Program-made: the position numbers and the translations under genes | DNA from: an uncultured Mycoplasmatota bacterium | GTDB lineage: Bacteria > Bacillota_I > Bacilli_A > RF39 > UBA660 | Length of the DNA: 28,551 bases | Direction of reading: 5' to 3' | Assembly (NCBI GenBank): GCA_946499755.1 | Contig: CAMMTE010000001.1 | Location: forward strand, 1-28,551 | Notes under the pieces: model-generated | The model's database searches: none | Told to the model about the DNA's origin: nothing | What the model saw: the letters and a program-made list of their open reading frames with translations, nothing else | In this document: positions 3,463 through 10,355 of the stretch, one piece after another | Layout of the letters: each line of letters begins with the position of its first letter | Numbering within the stretch: position 1 is the first letter of the stretch

Positions 3463-4617
3463 CTTATTATTATTTTGATAGTCATTAAACTTTTCGCCAA
3501 GAGTTGTATTCTCTAAAATAAATTCAAATATTATTTTTAAAGTAGCGATCACAGGTGTTGCAACTATCATTCCTATCATACCAAAGAAATAATTAAAAAT
3601 CAAGAGTCCAAGCATAATTGTAACAGGATGTAATTTCATGGTTTTACCCATAATTAATGGTTGATAGAAATTGTTTTCTAATAGTTGACAGATAAGTACT
3701 GATACTAAACAGAATACTCCTACCATCGGATCAATTGTAAAGCCTACTATTACAGCAGGAGCACCTCCAATCCATGGACCAATATATGGAATTATATCGG
3801 TAATAGCACAGAACAAGGCAAATAAGAATGGAGCGGAAAGTCCTGCTAAAGAGAAGCCAATAGACTGAGTTACAAAGACAAGGAAGCAAATAAGTAGTAC
3901 TCCGCCAACATAACTTCTTAATTTACCATTTACTCTACTCATTAAGTCTTTAGTATTCATATGCCATTTTTTAGGAATAAGACTTAATAAATGTCCTTGA
4001 AATTTACGAAAATCGAATAATAAGTAGAACCCTATCATAATACCTAAAACAATATTAGCAGCACCATTTACAAAGCCTTTACCAAAATTCCAAATAGTAT
4101 TAGGTAGTGCGCTTGCAATAGATGCACCTGTCTCTTCTATTTTTTCTAAAATAGTATCTTTATAATCTTCAAGTTCTTTACTATCTCCTAATCCTTCTAT
4201 AGCATCACTTACAAAGTCTTGAGCATTATCAACGATATCTGGAACAACAGAAACAATATCAGAAATACCACTAGAAAAAGTTGGTACAGTAAATGATATT
4301 ATTAAAATAAGTCCACCAAAGATAATTAAGTATGTTAGGATACAGGCGAGAACTCTTGGCATTTTAGTAGAAAACTTAGTAGCGATAGGATCAAGTAACC
4401 AAGCGATAACAAAACCAATAAAGACTGGTGATATTATTGATAAGATAGTACCTATAATACCAAGTATATTCCATTCTTTAATTAAGTAAGTACCTACTAA
4501 TACTACAAGAATTATTACTAATACTCCTACAAACTTTAAGATGTTATTAGAAGTATTAAAGAATGAATTAATAGCATTATAATCTAATTCACTATTTTTA
4601 TTATTTTTACGAAACAT
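3412..4617 (-). CDS. AI-2E family (PerM/YhhT-like) transporter
   Basis: Multi-TM protein with IPYIGPWIG, QLLENNFYQPLIMGKTMKLHP and GMIVATP motifs. Confidence 0.9.
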   Translation of the reverse strand: MFRKNNKNSELDYNAINSFFNTSNNILKFVGVLVIILVVLVGTYLIKEWNILGIIGTILSIISPVFIGFVIAWLLDPIATKFSTKMPRVLACILTYLIIFGGLILIISFTVPTFSSGISDIVSVVPDIVDNAQDFVSDAIEGLGDSKELEDYKDTILEKIEETGASIASALPNTIWNFGKGFVNGAANIVLGIMIGFYLLFDFRKFQGHLLSLIPKKWHMNTKDLMSRVNGKLRSYVGGVLLICFLVFVTQSIGFSLAGLSAPFLFALFCAITDIIPYIGPWIGGAPAVIVGFTIDPMVGVFCLVSVLICQLLENNFYQPLIMGKTMKLHPVTIMLGLLIFNYFFGMIGMIVATPVIATLKIIFEFILENTTLGEKFNDYQNNNKKTYEKKSTKEDIVKES

Positions 4618-4637
4618 AGTATTCCTCCTTGTCCTTT

Positions 4638-4666
4638 ATTTTAGCATATTAATTTAATACTGTAAA
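4638..4666 (-). promoter_or_regulatory. sigma-A promoter of the AI-2E gene
   Basis: TTTACA-17 nt-TAAAAT with extended -10 TG. Confidence 0.6.
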
Positions 4667-4704
4667 TTATATTAATAGTATTAACAATAAATATAAATTG
4701 ATAC

Positions 4705-4736
4705 AAAAAGAACTAAGTAATTTAGCTACTTAGTTC
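4705..4736 (-). terminator. Intrinsic terminator overlapping the stop codon of the DGR-target gene
   Basis: GAACTAAGTA-7 nt loop-TACTTAGTTC (10-bp perfect stem) followed by TTTTT. Confidence 0.8.
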
Positions 4737-6606
4737 CAAGAATAAATGGATCAGTTTTAGTTCCATCCCCTCCTGTTATTACTACATTGGATTTTAGATT
4801 TATGGATGGCCGGACACCGCCCGAAATGGTCGGAGCGCTGTAGTACGCAATGCCATCGTAGTACACGTAACGCACGTAAGACGAACTATATGGTGTTAAG
4901 GTCCAATAATTAGTTGTTAACCCTGTACTTGAATAGCTACCTTTTACGGCATATCTTTCAAATTGTCCCGCCATTAATTCTCCAAACCTTAGTAATCCTA
5001 CTTTAGCATTTGTAGTAGTAGAAACTGTACTACTCATATTAGTATCTGTATATTTGGCTAGTTTATATGAATCACTACTTCCTACTGTTCCTAGATACCA
5101 AGTTGTACTATCTTCTATCATATCACTATAAGCATTTCCTACATAATTAGTTAGATATTCCCCATTTAAAAATGTTCCAATTGTATTTGTACTTGAAAAT
5201 GTAGTTGTATCTCCAAATGCACTTATTATAAATGTTCCAGAATTTTTTAGGGGTTCAGCACTAGTTATCTTAGTCAAACCTAAAGTCTCATGACTTACTA
5301 TTCTATATAGATTATTCTCATCATTTCCAAATCTTACATACTCACCACTATATCTACTTGAAAGTAATGTACCTGATAGACTTGTATCATTATCTCCTTC
5401 TAAGCGATAGGGATTTTCTATTGTTCCATTACCATCTACGATACGAACGCTAGATTTTAGATTTATTGATGGCCGGACACCGTACGAATCGGCCGGAGTT
5501 TTGTTGTACGCAACGCCATAGCCGCTCACGCCACGCACGTCAGACGAACTATATGGTGTTAAAGTCCACCAAGTAAGACCATTATTTAAATAACCATTAC
5601 CATATGTAGTTCCTGTATAACTTGTCTGATATTCATATATATTTAAAAGCCCCACGGCTTTGCTTACTGTTGTTGTTCCATTTGGTCTTGTTATACTTCC
5701 TAGACTAGTGGCATCTAATGTAGCATCCCATACTGCATCTGTTACTATAAAGTCCCCATAATTTCTTAAATTACCCAAAAAGCCATCAACACTTGTATCA
5801 TTTAACCATTCTTCCATATAACTTCCTTCAAAATTAGTTTGATTATCAGGATTATAGTTAATTGCACTTATATTCCACTGTGTTACTAACTTAGTAGTAT
5901 TCGCTTCTTTATTAACAGATACTGCTCTCCATAATTTTCCACTATACCATATATAATTATTAGGATCTTCTCCAGTTATAAATGTATCTATCCCATCATC
6001 ATAAAGATTATCTTTAGGTATATTTGCTAACAATGTTTCTGCTACTGTTGGTCTTTCTTGAGATACTTCTACTCTTAACTTACCACTAAATACTTGACCT
6101 GAATAATTTCCATCTACTTCATCTGTTATCCAGAGATTTAAACTATATTTATTAGTTCCTCCTCCTTCTATAGTTCCACTATCTAAGACTCTATTAGGGT
6201 TAGTTCCTGTCTTAGTTAAAAGTGTCGCTCCACTGTCAGTTCCATTCTTATTTAAATTATACTTTAAATACTTATCATCTATTCTTGTATCAGTATCACT
6301 TATTGTATTATCATCTAAATAAATTGTATAATCTACTGCTTTATTCCCATTATTTCTTAATTCAAATGTTGATCCATCTAAAGACATACCTTTACTATCA
6401 CTTATACCTACTGCATTATCTAAACTTATCCCTTCACTTGTTTCATCTAATACTAATTCTAACTCTCCTACTTTTACTATTTGATCTTTACCAGATAATT
6501 GTGTAGAAAAGTATGCATATGTAAGTGCAAGTAATAGAATTATTACTATTAATATACTTATAACTATTACTGTTACCTTTTTCTTTTTATCGTTATCTTT
6601 TTCCAT
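4726..6606 (-). CDS. Surface protein: TasA/camelysin-like N-terminus plus two tandem DUF6273/C-type-lectin-like domains; putative DGR target
   Basis: Basic N-terminus, hydrophobic helix and ALTYAYFS cleavage-type motif. Two homologous domains end in WWTLTP..GVRPSINL and YWTLTP..GVRPSINL, a motif typical of Bacillota DGR target domains. Domain names come from motif recognition, not a search. Confidence 0.75.
   Translation of the reverse strand: MEKDNDKKKKVTVIVISILIVIILLLALTYAYFSTQLSGKDQIVKVGELELVLDETSEGISLDNAVGISDSKGMSLDGSTFELRNNGNKAVDYTIYLDDNTISDTDTRIDDKYLKYNLNKNGTDSGATLLTKTGTNPNRVLDSGTIEGGGTNKYSLNLWITDEVDGNYSGQVFSGKLRVEVSQERPTVAETLLANIPKDNLYDDGIDTFITGEDPNNYIWYSGKLWRAVSVNKEANTTKLVTQWNISAINYNPDNQTNFEGSYMEEWLNDTSVDGFLGNLRNYGDFIVTDAVWDATLDATSLGSITRPNGTTTVSKAVGLLNIYEYQTSYTGTTYGNGYLNNGLTWWTLTPYSSSDVRGVSGYGVAYNKTPADSYGVRPSINLKSSVRIVDGNGTIENPYRLEGDNDTSLSGTLLSSRYSGEYVRFGNDENNLYRIVSHETLGLTKITSAEPLKNSGTFIISAFGDTTTFSSTNTIGTFLNGEYLTNYVGNAYSDMIEDSTTWYLGTVGSSDSYKLAKYTDTNMSSTVSTTTNAKVGLLRFGELMAGQFERYAVKGSYSSTGLTTNYWTLTPYSSSYVRYVYYDGIAYYSAPTISGGVRPSINLKSNVVITGGDGTKTDPFILGTK
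4790..4905 (-). repeat. Putative DGR variable repeat VR-C (C-terminal); variable core 4819-4878
   Basis: 116-nt ungapped copy of 5453-5568 with 20 mismatches, 18 of them in a 60-nt core. Core is 55% GC in an AT-rich gene. Confidence 0.85.
5453..5568 (-). repeat. Putative DGR variable repeat VR-N (internal); variable core 5482-5541
   Basis: In-frame partner of 4790-4905, offset 663 nt (221 codons). Core is 60% GC. Confidence 0.85.
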
Positions 6607-6674: not shown

Positions 6675-6704
6675 ATGATATCACCAAATATAAGGACAAT
6701 GCAA
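6675..6704 (-). promoter_or_regulatory. Candidate promoter of the DGR-target gene
   Basis: TTGCAT-18 nt-TATCAT with extended -10 TG. Confidence 0.45.
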
Positions 6705-6762
6705 GCAATATTTATAGTTATGTAAAAAAATAAAATTTATATGAATTTTAAAAATTGCTTGT

Positions 6763-6791
6763 TTGCATTACTTTTTCCCCTATGTTAGAGT
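6763..6791 (+). promoter_or_regulatory. Candidate promoter of the Rpn-family gene
   Basis: TTGCAT-17 nt-TAGAGT with extended -10 TG. Confidence 0.5.
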
Positions 6792-6833: not shown

Positions 6834-7670
6834 ATGAAACAAGAAGAAAAGAAATTTATTAGTCTTTTAAGTGACACTACCTTTAAACATTTCTTTAAAA
6901 TAGAAGACTATAAAGAATTCTTTAATACTATTATTAAACCTATTATAAATATGGATATTAATGATTTTAAATTATATGATACGGAGTTAAACAGTGGTAA
7001 TGAAAAACGTGATTATCGGCTTGATATATTATTAGTAAGTGATTTAGTTGATATAATTATATCAATAGAGATGAATCAGTTTCCTAGTGAAGAGACAAAG
7101 TATAAAGATAGATTATATGTATATGGTTTACTTGCTAAAGGTCTAAATAGTGGTGAAGATATTAAGAAGAAGAAAGTCATTCAAATAAACTTTAATAAAG
7201 AAAAGCATCCTTATGTCAGTAAAGGTTCATTTTATTTAATGGATAAGGTAACTAATAGAGAAATAAAAGATTTTGAAATACACGAAGTGTATCTTGAAAA
7301 TTACAAAGGAATAAGATATAATGGAGACAATAAAGAAGAAGCATATCTATCTTTATTTACTGCTAATTCTTATGAAGAGTTAAGAGAAATAGCAGGAGAT
7401 GATAAGGAGGCATTAAAGATTGTGGATGAATTAGAAAGACTAGGGATTGATGATGAATTTGGAGTAGTCTATGATAATGAGGCAATGCAGAAAAGAATGA
7501 TTAATACTGCTCGTAATTGGGGTTATGATGATGGTAAAGCAGATGGTGCTAGAGCAGAAAAACTTTCTATTGCTAAAAATTTCCTTAAAGATGGTATACC
7601 TATAGAAGTAGTATCTAAAAATACTGGTTTAAGTGTAGAAGAATTAGAAATAATAAATAAAGAAGCATAA
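6834..7670 (+). CDS. Rpn family recombination-promoting nuclease / putative transposase (PD-(D/E)XK, PDDEXK_2-like)
   Basis: LSDTTFKHFF start motif, RLDIL..IEMNQ catalytic core, and the typical tail IAKNFLKDGIPIEVVSKNTGLSVEELE. Confidence 0.85.
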   Translation: MKQEEKKFISLLSDTTFKHFFKIEDYKEFFNTIIKPIINMDINDFKLYDTELNSGNEKRDYRLDILLVSDLVDIIISIEMNQFPSEETKYKDRLYVYGLLAKGLNSGEDIKKKKVIQINFNKEKHPYVSKGSFYLMDKVTNREIKDFEIHEVYLENYKGIRYNGDNKEEAYLSLFTANSYEELREIAGDDKEALKIVDELERLGIDDEFGVVYDNEAMQKRMINTARNWGYDDGKADGARAEKLSIAKNFLKDGIPIEVVSKNTGLSVEELEIINKEA

Positions 7671-8368: not shown

Positions 8369-9277
8369 CTACTCCCAATTAACAAATTCTTGTTCTATTT
8401 TTAAATCTATACCATAATGATCTTTTACGGCGTCTTTTACAAATAAAATTAAATCATGTATATCTTTAGCACTAGCATTATTTTTATTAATTATAAAGTT
8501 AGCATGAACTTCACTAACTTCTGCTCCTCCTTTAGTTAATCCTTTAAGTCCAATATCTTCTATTAACTTACCAGAAGGATCAGCATTAGGTGGATTTCTA
8601 AAGACACTACCAGCACTTGGATAATTTAGAGGTTGTGATTTCATTCTTCTTTGCTTTCTATCTTTAACTACTTCTTCTAAAGCACTTTTATCGCCTTTTT
8701 CAAGTCTTATAGTTGCTTCTAAACAGATGTAATTTGGATGAGTCTGCAAGAAACTACTACGATAGTGAAAATCCATCTCTTCATTAGTTAAAGTAATAAT
8801 CTTAAAATCATCTGTTAAGACTTTAACACTTCTTGTAACATAACCCATATCACTCTTATAAGCTCCTGCATTCATATAAATAGCACCACCAATAGTACCT
8901 GGTATACCTGTTGCAAATTCTAAGCCTGCTAAACCTCTTTTAATAGATTCTCTAGCTACCTTCATTAAAGATGCTCCCGCTCCACAGATTATTTTATTAT
9001 CATAAAATTCTATTTTATTAAATTCATCTAACTTAATTAAAACTCCTTCATAAGTCTTATCACTAAATAATAAATTACTTCCATTACCTAATATTTTATA
9101 TTTAATATTATATTTTTTTATCAATTTACATAATAGTACTAACTTTTCTATAGTCTTAGGATAAATAATCGCTCTTACAAGTCCTCCTACTTTATAAGTA
9201 GTATATTTACTTATAAAAACATCTTTAACTATTTTTCCTATATCATTAGATTCTACTTCATTTAAAAATTCTTTCAT
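8369..9277 (-). CDS. murB: UDP-N-acetylenolpyruvoylglucosamine reductase
   Basis: TTYKVGG, LGNGSNLL, GIPGTIGGAIYMNAGAY, QPLNYPSAGSVFRNP and HANFIIN motifs. Confidence 0.97.
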   Translation of the reverse strand: MKEFLNEVESNDIGKIVKDVFISKYTTYKVGGLVRAIIYPKTIEKLVLLCKLIKKYNIKYKILGNGSNLLFSDKTYEGVLIKLDEFNKIEFYDNKIICGAGASLMKVARESIKRGLAGLEFATGIPGTIGGAIYMNAGAYKSDMGYVTRSVKVLTDDFKIITLTNEEMDFHYRSSFLQTHPNYICLEATIRLEKGDKSALEEVVKDRKQRRMKSQPLNYPSAGSVFRNPPNADPSGKLIEDIGLKGLTKGGAEVSEVHANFIINKNNASAKDIHDLILFVKDAVKDHYGIDLKIEQEFVNWE

Positions 9278-9278
9278 C

Positions 9279-10355
9279 TTATTCATCCCCTACTACATCT
9301 AAAATTACATCATATATTTTACTAGCACTATCACTTATCTTCATTTTTAATAATTCTTTGCTCATACTATTTAATTTCTTTTTATCATTAATTAATTTAT
9401 CTACTAAAGGTATTAAAGTATCTTTACTAAAGTTCTCTTCTTCTAGTATTTCTACACCCTTACCTAAAGCTTTTGCATTCTTATATTGATGATTATTAGT
9501 AACATATGGACTAGGTACCATAATAGCAGGTAAACCTATACTAGTAAGCTCTGAGATAGTAGATGCTCCACTTCTAGTAATCATTAAATCTGCATCTTTC
9601 ATAAGAGCGATTAAATTATCATAGAAAGGTAATAGTTTTACATTATTACTTAGTTTTATATCTTTATAATCGTCATAATAGTTCTTACCTGTTATTAATA
9701 ATACTTGATAGTTTTTATTATTAAATAGTGGTAATATTTCTTTTAATTTATTAGTCATAGTTAAAGAACCAAGAGACCCCATTACTATAATTACTAAAGG
9801 TAAATCTTTAATAAAACCTAAAGATGTCTTAGATACTTTTTTAATGTCTTTTATTTGTTCACTTCTAGGATTTCCTGTATATATTACTTTATCTTTAGGA
9901 AAGTATTCACTACTTTCTTTGAAAGACACTAATATTTTATCTACATAGCGAGATAAGAATTTATTAGAAACACCAGGAATAGAATTTTGTTCGTGAATAA
10001 TAGTTTTTATTTTAAGTTTAGAAGCAGAATAAATAACTGGTGCTGATATATAACCACCAAAGCCAATAACGACATCTGGTTTAAACTTAGATAATTCTTC
10101 TTTCGCTTTCTTACAAGCTCTATAATATGTTTTCATTACTTCAATATTTTTAAAAGGATTCTTACGGTTTAAACCTATCATTTTAATACCAACATAATTT
10201 ATATTTTGTTTAGGAATAATATCTTTTTCCATTCTATCAGTTGTACCAATATAAAGAATATCTACATCTTTATCTTTTTCCTTAAGCTTAGAGATTAATG
10301 CTAAAGCGGGAAATATATGTCCACCAGTTCCTCCTGCTGTAATAACTATCTTCAT
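9279..10355 (-). CDS. murG: Undecaprenyl-PP-MurNAc-pentapeptide GlcNAc transferase
   Basis: AGGTGGHIFP, HEQNSIPG, TGNPRS, GSLGS, RSGASTISE and HQYKNA motifs. Confidence 0.97.
   Translation of the reverse strand: MKIVITAGGTGGHIFPALALISKLKEKDKDVDILYIGTTDRMEKDIIPKQNINYVGIKMIGLNRKNPFKNIEVMKTYYRACKKAKEELSKFKPDVVIGFGGYISAPVIYSASKLKIKTIIHEQNSIPGVSNKFLSRYVDKILVSFKESSEYFPKDKVIYTGNPRSEQIKDIKKVSKTSLGFIKDLPLVIIVMGSLGSLTMTNKLKEILPLFNNKNYQVLLITGKNYYDDYKDIKLSNNVKLLPFYDNLIALMKDADLMITRSGASTISELTSIGLPAIMVPSPYVTNNHQYKNAKALGKGVEILEEENFSKDTLIPLVDKLINDKKKLNSMSKELLKMKISDSASKIYDVILDVVGDE

Follow-up and report, generated by a model that had tools for sequence, protein, structure and literature searches.

In this study, we analysed a 28.5-kb stretch of DNA (hereafter the window), which is the entire contig C1 of a 138-contig MAG (G000; 1.15 Mb, 68% completeness, 27% GC), and found that both 77-nt repeats of one of its genes are almost certainly variable repeats (VRs) of a diversity-generating retroelement (DGR). 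Taken as a whole, we read the gene with moderate confidence as a remote target that was written by a DGR, evolutionarily recently, and that is now orphaned or dormant with no detectable rewriting. A sequence-only reading had regarded the repeats as a DGR target lacking both a template repeat (TR) and a reverse transcriptase (RT) in the window, and indeed neither was found on the 28.5-kb contig. RVT_1 matches of the MAG were confined to contigs C6 and C18, and the window is therefore without an RT.

In the proposed mechanism, both VRs would have been written by mutagenic retrohoming from one Asn-codon-rich TR of an Onthousia-type DGR, named here after the related genomes of Candidatus Onthousia. 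The TR transcript would be reverse-transcribed with random bases placed opposite adenines, and the cDNA would replace the VR as far as its GC-rich 3′ block. The window gene would be a remote target, its own template lying beyond the assembled sequence searched, and contig C6 of the same MAG most likely carries a different template.

Target gene and structure of its product

The target gene is surrounded by housekeeping genes, i.e., its context is that of the core chromosome. The encoded protein consists of a Lys-rich N-terminal segment with one transmembrane helix, a beta-rich N-domain, and two DUF6273 modules (Table 1). By motif resemblance, the N-terminal segment is possibly a SipW-type signal; an NCBIfam search gave no match. 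Pfam DUF6273 was detected in two stretches (E 8.7e-9; 35.9 bits vs. a cut-off of 23.5 bits), and with a score above the gathering threshold and the fold of the family the protein belongs to DUF6273. More than 3200 homologues were found, and the named ones come from Candidatus Onthousia.

Table 1. Target gene, protein modules, and variable repeats in the window, with the basis of each assignment.
Feature	Position	Strand	Basis
Target gene, 626 aa (P0001)	4726..6606	-	ORF list and translation
N-terminal signal/anchor, residues 1-35 (...ALTYAYFST)	6502..6606	-	helix 4-29 in whole-protein model
DUF6273 module 1, residues 195-392, C-type-lectin-like fold	5431..6024	-	AlphaFold2 model
DUF6273 module 2, residues 405-612	4771..5394	-	second Pfam stretch and internal repeat
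VR1, 77-nt core, residues 354-379	5471..5547	-	core comparison
VR1 GC-rich 3′ end GGTGTCCGGCC, IMH-like boundary	5471..5481	-	identical in all VRs compared
VR2, 77-nt core, residues 575-600	4808..4884	-	core comparison
VR2 GC-rich 3′ end GGTGTCCGGCC, IMH-like boundary	4808..4818	-	identical in all VRs compared

The AlphaFold2 model of the whole protein was poor (pLDDT 47) and was set aside for a domain model of residues 195–400, which was computed with 65 diverse homologues aligned and reached a mean pLDDT of 96.6. In VIA-align comparisons, module 1 of this model matched the N-terminal DUF6273 domain of the Thomasclavelia ramosa IgA peptidase with a Z of 18.1 (9qa6; rmsd 2.5 over 182 residues), followed by the C-terminal domain of Legionella Lcl (Z 7.7), the DGR variable protein TvpA (2y3c; Z 7.0), many C-type lectin domains (Z 5–6), and Mtd (1yu0; Z 4.9). 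VR1 maps onto the last beta-strands of the module. Thus, a feature of DGR targets was found here, namely a C-terminal VR in a lectin-like domain that is closed by a GC-rich, IMH-like block. When 42 homologues were aligned, the two VRs accounted for 26 of the 40 columns with the highest variability. The gene product is best explained as a predicted secreted or surface protein carrying two C-type-lectin-like DUF6273 modules.

Two variable repeats on an adenine-poor scaffold

Both VR cores sit within a 153-nt direct repeat with 76% identity and a spacing of 663 nt. Exactly two copies each of GGTGTCCGGCC and ACGTGCGT are present in the window, compared to 0.01 and 0.04 copies, respectively, expected by shuffling. 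The earlier observation that there is no third copy could be extended to the whole MAG, in which none was detected even when 15 substitutions at the 59 fixed positions were allowed.

The VR1 and VR2 cores are identical at 59 of 77 positions, and of the 18 differences 11 are at codon position 1, six at position 2, and one at position 3. This is the DGR feature of variation confined to positions 1 and 2 of AAY-type codons on a fixed, adenine-poor scaffold: every core adenine is part of a codon that varies either between the window VRs or across a comparison of 15 VR copies (see below), and 12 of the 14 invariant core codons are without A, compared to 17% of the codons in the rest of the gene. 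The cores also differ from their surroundings in base composition, with a GC content of 0.53–0.62 vs. about 0.25–0.35 in the flanks and a GC3 of 0.71 in the 14 invariant codons vs. 0.12 across the rest of the gene. The codons TCG, GTG, CGT, GGC, CCG, and CGG are used 0–1 times each in the gene outside the cores. Just beyond the core edges, synonymous-site differences between the two copies set in. The GGTGTCCGGCC block is identical in both window VRs and in the 15 VRs, which come from four genomes, and may act as IMH; a search for hairpins or cruciforms downstream of the VRs revealed no significant one (z −1.2, +0.5, and +0.8).

DGR cassettes in Candidatus Onthousia

VR-like cores were present in 31 of 36 sampled congeners (Candidatus Onthousia, chicken gut) but absent from 24 further genomes of the class, and they are usually paired at a distance of about 640 nt. 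The layout in this genus is a two-VR DUF6273 gene, a leader, the TR, a spacer, an ORF termed ORF112, avd, and the RT gene. In genome G015, for example, the two-VR gene is followed after about 90 nt by the leader and the TR (L042:5811-5886, minus strand), a spacer of about 280 nt, the conserved 112-aa ORF, avd, and a 316-aa RT. The homologous genes of G015 and G018 form TR-VR pairs with mismatches almost only at TR adenines: within the first 68 nt, each of their four VRs shows 13–15 A-site and 0–2 non-A differences to the single adjacent TR. This is the defining pattern of a DGR, with a single template serving two sites per gene. TR and VR sequences of the congeners diverge just after the GC-rich 3′ block, the TR having a specific tail (CATTTCC...) in which GGTGTCCGGC is followed by ATTTCC and not by CATC.

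Intact TRs of the same family adjoin the RT in congeners. About 22 of the 53 congeners have an RT of the Onthousia type, which is intact in about 15 of them and broken or truncated in about seven; many of these RTs are located at contig ends, and some congeners have two cassettes of this type. Truncated TR remnants were found in at least five congeners (G020, G025, G034, G061, and G067). Their TRs break off at a common point about 40 nt in (L055, L056, L057, L059, and L024, belonging to G061, G034, G020, G067, and G025, respectively), and the sequence runs on into the palindrome TATAAGACATGTCTTATAAT and shared downstream sequence. The template is killed here by a deletion or insertion that either recurred or was inherited. 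One metagenome lineage has an IS200/IS605-type Y1 transposase gene (L114:2168-2599) inserted between the RT gene and an avd shortened to 83 aa, and the TR of this lineage has lost about six codons.

ORF112 was always located between the TR spacer and avd (L042:5194-5532; L071:255-593; at the end of C6, L009:2652-2942). It gave no Pfam match and was represented by only 55 protein clusters in 5.8 billion sequences; the named members are from Candidatus Onthousia and most others from gut-metagenome contigs. It is a candidate for a lineage-specific accessory factor of the Onthousia-type DGR. Many cassette contigs (L094, L098, L101, and L103) start just upstream of ORF112 at a T-run of at least 20 nt in the spacer. 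This T-run together with the repeated leader and TR is probably the reason why the TR is often missing from short-read assemblies.

GC content of the template

The GC-rich cores had been attributed to a template from a higher-GC donor. This was not borne out: the avd, RT, and ORF112 genes have a GC content of 18–22% and the spacer of 23%, and only the TR reaches about 51%, with 77% GC among its non-adenine bases. With AT-rich cassette genes and the TR alone being GC-rich, GC richness is therefore a property of the template and does not reflect foreign origin. At the fixed sites of the TR, adenine is avoided and G and C are preferred. GC-rich fixed sites may stabilise the pairing of cDNA and target in a very AT-rich genome.

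These data also bear on an explanation without any retroelement, in which domain duplication, gene conversion, and diversifying selection on loops shaped the repeats and the GC-rich DNA came from a higher-GC donor. Although it would agree with the paralogy of the two modules and with cores that are GC-richer than the host DNA, we consider it very improbable, as gene conversion would not produce a pattern in which 18 differences are scattered among 59 identical positions and 17 of these differences fall on codon positions 1 and 2. Moreover, the core codons are nearly absent elsewhere in the gene, the congener cores differ from the adjacent non-coding template only at adenines, and cassette genes of such low GC content do not point to a GC-rich donor.

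Shared scaffold and predicted template

Taking the repeats as DGR VRs, we compared copies with the same scaffold. With a threshold of at most three mismatches to the window scaffold, 15 distinct VRs were collected from four genomes, i.e., G029 (a Bacilli MAG), Candidatus Onthousia excrementipullorum, a third MAG, and the window. At nearly all variable sites, these VRs contain three or four different bases, and A is the most frequent or among the most frequent ones. The template is thereby predictable, as the sequence-only reading had proposed: placing A at the variable sites of the 15 VRs rebuilds 25 of the 26 codons of the string predicted there, and only its codon 16 has to be changed (AAC, not AAA). 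The TR of G015 differs from the predicted template in only two of the first 15 codons.

For the window gene and its homologue in Candidatus Onthousia excrementipullorum (L080), the scaffold is identical at 101 of 104 positions, while identity is 88% at other sites, 80% at third codon positions, and 38% at variable sites. Such a conserved scaffold combined with so divergent variable sites indicates that rewriting from a conserved template continued after the lineages had split.

A dispersed network of targets sharing the scaffold had also been suggested. Such a network does exist in the congener G029, where 10 contigs together carry at least 13 VRs with a perfect window-type scaffold (loci L061-L070), but not in the window MAG, where only the two window VRs carry this scaffold. 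As an additional observation, the cognate RT of G029 (L071:896-1633, on G029:C52) is truncated right after YMDD and has 245 aa instead of 316 aa. Either this truncation is very recent or another RT serves the at least 13 VRs of this genome.

Cassettes and relics in the window MAG

The MAG contains two RTs, on C6 and C18, both with the motifs LPIGNYTSQ and YMDD and with an avd gene upstream. C6 carries a partial ORF112, a weak bAvd-like gene, and an intact RT of 316 aa, and the Avd encoded on C18 next to the RT matches the NCBIfam DivGenRetAVD equivalog. Hence, an RT of the DGR clade ([I/L/V]GxxxSQ, YxDD) and Avd are present in the same genome, and neither cassette is linked to the window VRs. 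When the C6 RT was compared by sequence with solved structures, the 328-aa reverse transcriptase 8ub7_A ranked first (E 4.8e-20), ahead of the RTs of group II introns, retrons, and Drt systems; we take it to be the Bordetella DGR RT. The C6 RT is 90% identical to the RT of G015, which adjoins an intact TR. No exact match to the Avd or RT protein of C6 was found in other assemblies.

C6 stops about 330 nt short of the expected end of the TR, and C6, G014:C57, and G029:C52 all break at the same place beside the TR. The nearest relatives of the C6 ORF112, avd, and RT genes carry TRs of a GTT-CGG group, either of the L095 type (via P0281) or of the G020:C9 type (via P0291). RT identities separate the TR types weakly (92.4% vs. 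90.7–90.9%). The part of C6 that holds ORF112 is a mosaic and 99.7% identical to G016, whose TR is also unassembled. A VR on C103 of the window MAG differs from the L095-type TR (L095:2120-2205) at eight A sites and at no other site. Because its relatives carry GTT-CGG TRs, and these fit C103, C6 probably serves the VRs of C103 and C13 and not the window gene.

We therefore judge it unlikely that the C6 cassette is the donor and that its unassembled TR has the window scaffold. In favour of this explanation, the MAG has no other intact cassette of the right family, and the assembly lacks the C6 TR. The nearest relatives of C6, however, carry the GTT-CGG-TAT-GTC scaffold, which exceeds the window scaffold by 3 nt and matches the VR on C103 of this MAG without any non-A mismatch.

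The DGR on C18 was rejected as donor, since its templates belong to an unrelated group, the classical lectin type with RGG...FRLV. C21 starts with a leader and a decayed, truncated TR fused to sequence that is normally found after the RT, which makes it a dead cassette.

Search for the matching template

Neither the 68%-complete MAG nor 53 congeners and the two further MAGs G077 and G078 contained a TR with the window scaffold, and a pattern scan of JGI metagenome contigs did not detect one either. Scaffold-pattern scans matched VRs only, in three other MAGs, and no TR. In total, 23 distinct full TRs were gathered from congeners and metagenome contigs, including those reached via ORF112 homologues; none of them fits the window scaffold, and the best have 7–9 non-A mismatches to the window VRs. 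Viral contigs (IMG/VR) gave no match to the leader-TR sequence or to the scaffold. Carriage of the system by a phage was rejected, considering this lack of an IMG/VR match and the core-chromosomal context of the window.

As the MAG is 68% complete and C6 ends short of the TR, the matching template may be unassembled. Alternatively, the template of the window scaffold could be located on a mobile or unbinned element shared among Onthousia species. This would explain an identical scaffold of roughly 50 nt in at least four species despite a divergence of 12–20% in the flanking sequence of the gene, as well as the absence of the TR from 55 MAGs in which other TR types assemble beside the RT. If true, dozens of surface lectins in different species would owe their diversity to a single “broadcast” template; we regard this as improbable.

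Activity of the locus

Our preferred reading, an orphaned or dormant target, results from the finding that no assembled sequence reached contains the matching template and that the C6 template is probably a different one. VR2 is spanned by Logan contigs of four chicken-gut runs (three studies), which show 0, 0, 0, and 1 differences from the window and an identical VR, and VR1 is spanned with 0 differences by contigs of three of these runs. In a second assembly, the encoded protein differs by a single substitution, T296P, outside the VRs. VR diversity within or between populations of one strain, as expected for an active DGR, was thus not seen in Logan contigs, which drop rare variants. The identity of the VRs across independent samples indicates that the dominant haplotype is fixed, and rare variants could escape Logan contigs. 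Skip joints at 5472–5553, which occurred in all runs, are tentatively read as paralogues sharing flanks and not as VR alleles. Two points speak against dormancy: the MAG is incomplete, and none of the 59 scaffold positions has decayed despite the 27% GC content of the genome, so that the last writing was recent on the evolutionary scale. Given identical VRs and no matching template, we lean towards the window VRs being relic or dormant rather than rewritten in trans.

A live remote target is a possible, somewhat doubtful alternative. In this case, a template in the unassembled third of the genome, either past the end of C6 or in a second cassette, would still rewrite the VRs in trans, rarely enough for one haplotype to dominate the sampled flocks. 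The window VRs with their undecayed scaffold and intact 3′ block would be in line with this, as would the intact 316-aa C6 RT with YMDD and 90% identity to an RT located beside an intact TR, the assembly breaks next to the TR in C6, G014:C57, and G029:C52, and the occurrence of two Onthousia-type cassettes in some congeners. Yet a matching TR is absent among 23 distinct TRs and 55 genomes, the VRs are identical in four runs of three studies and in one further assembly, and decay of cassettes is common in the genus (about seven of 22 RTs broken, TRs truncated in at least five congeners). We keep to the reading of a real remote target that is probably dormant.

Comparison with known systems

The DGR of Bordetella phage BPP-1 (mtd-avd-TR-brt) is the prototype of these elements. 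The Onthousia system shares with it the adenine-specific transfer from TR to VR, the pair of avd and RT, the GC-rich block at the 3′ end of the VR, and the C-terminal VR on a lectin-like fold. It differs in its order (target, TR, spacer, ORF112, avd, RT) with the extra conserved 112-aa ORF, in having two VRs per gene, and in that no significant hairpin follows the window VRs.

In gut phages and in Faecalibacterium prophages, DUF6273 has already been described as a lectin-like domain targeted by DGRs, with a C-terminal VR (PMC10743442, PMC11792537). Examples are the tentaclins and Mtd-like targets with DUF6273 in phages nd4 and nd12 (PMC10743442) and the DUF6273 DGR targets of the Faecalibacterium prophages Lelie, CP11, Roos, and Pioen (PMC11792537). 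The window gene shares with these targets the Pfam domain, the VR at the C-terminal end, and the C-type-lectin-like fold. In contrast to them, it is located in the chromosome among housekeeping genes and not in a phage tail module, it consists of two modules, each with a VR, behind a signal/anchor and a beta-rich N-domain, and it has no adjacent cassette.

The DGR of Treponema denticola has TvpA and up to seven non-adjacent targets (PMC5758913, PMC4891356), and in a survey from 2017 this number of remote targets was the highest, found in Treponema (PMC5758913). Both systems are cellular, with a single template for remote targets and a lectin-like variable protein (Z 7.0 to 2y3c). The T. denticola targets are of the FGE-sulfatase type, whereas the window family is DUF6273, and the TR and RT of T. 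denticola are known and match the remote VRs, whereas the matching TR of the window was not found.

Hence, remote DGR targets and DUF6273 targets in phages are already documented, and particular to the system described here are the chromosomal, genus-wide setting in Onthousia, the paired VRs per gene, ORF112, and the many sites per small genome. For the window itself the result is modest, being a probably dormant but real remote target of a known system. To the DUF6273 targets, which so far came from phages, the study adds a chromosomal, genus-wide DGR of chicken-gut Bacilli with small genomes, in which both binding modules of a protein are rewritten from one template and more than a dozen sites can be present in one genome of 1.6 Mb. 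As the genus spans stages from intact cassette via truncated template to orphaned target, it provides a natural series on how long DGR-written patches survive without their writer.

Further DGR-related loci in the MAG

About a dozen two-module DUF6273 genes are present as paralogues in the MAG (contigs C8, C13, C29, C30, C62, C64, C65, C73, C96, C101, C103, and C134). The GC content of the VR region is 0.46 in the window gene, 0.42 in those of C13 and C103, 0.35–0.40 in C8 and C101, and 0.26–0.33 in most others. This gradient looks like a decay series of former DGR targets.

The second DGR of the MAG (C18; L045:3797-10040) comprises a target gene (3797-5674) with a classical lectin-type VR at about 5553-5659, one adenine-poor unit at 6699-6791, and a tandem array of five Asn-codon-rich, TR-like units of about 330 nt, which start near 7005, 7335, 7668, 7998, and 8338. 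The array is located directly upstream of avd (8614-8985) and the RT gene (8970-10040). Its units differ from each other at non-adenine sites too and may be several distinct templates, which would be unusual. A further VR-like copy was found at C25:2394-2506.

Finally, an Rpn-like gene (recombination-promoting nuclease/transposase-like) adjoins the window target at 6834-7670 (plus strand). Other Rpn-like genes are located downstream of the C6 RT (L009:278-1222, minus strand) and beside the C21 relic (from about 383), and HTH_Rpn_C was found at the same position in other cassettes. The C-terminal parts of the Rpn-like proteins are homologous (32% identity over 106 residues, E 1e-12), and a link of these genes to the dispersal or decay of DGR loci is possible.
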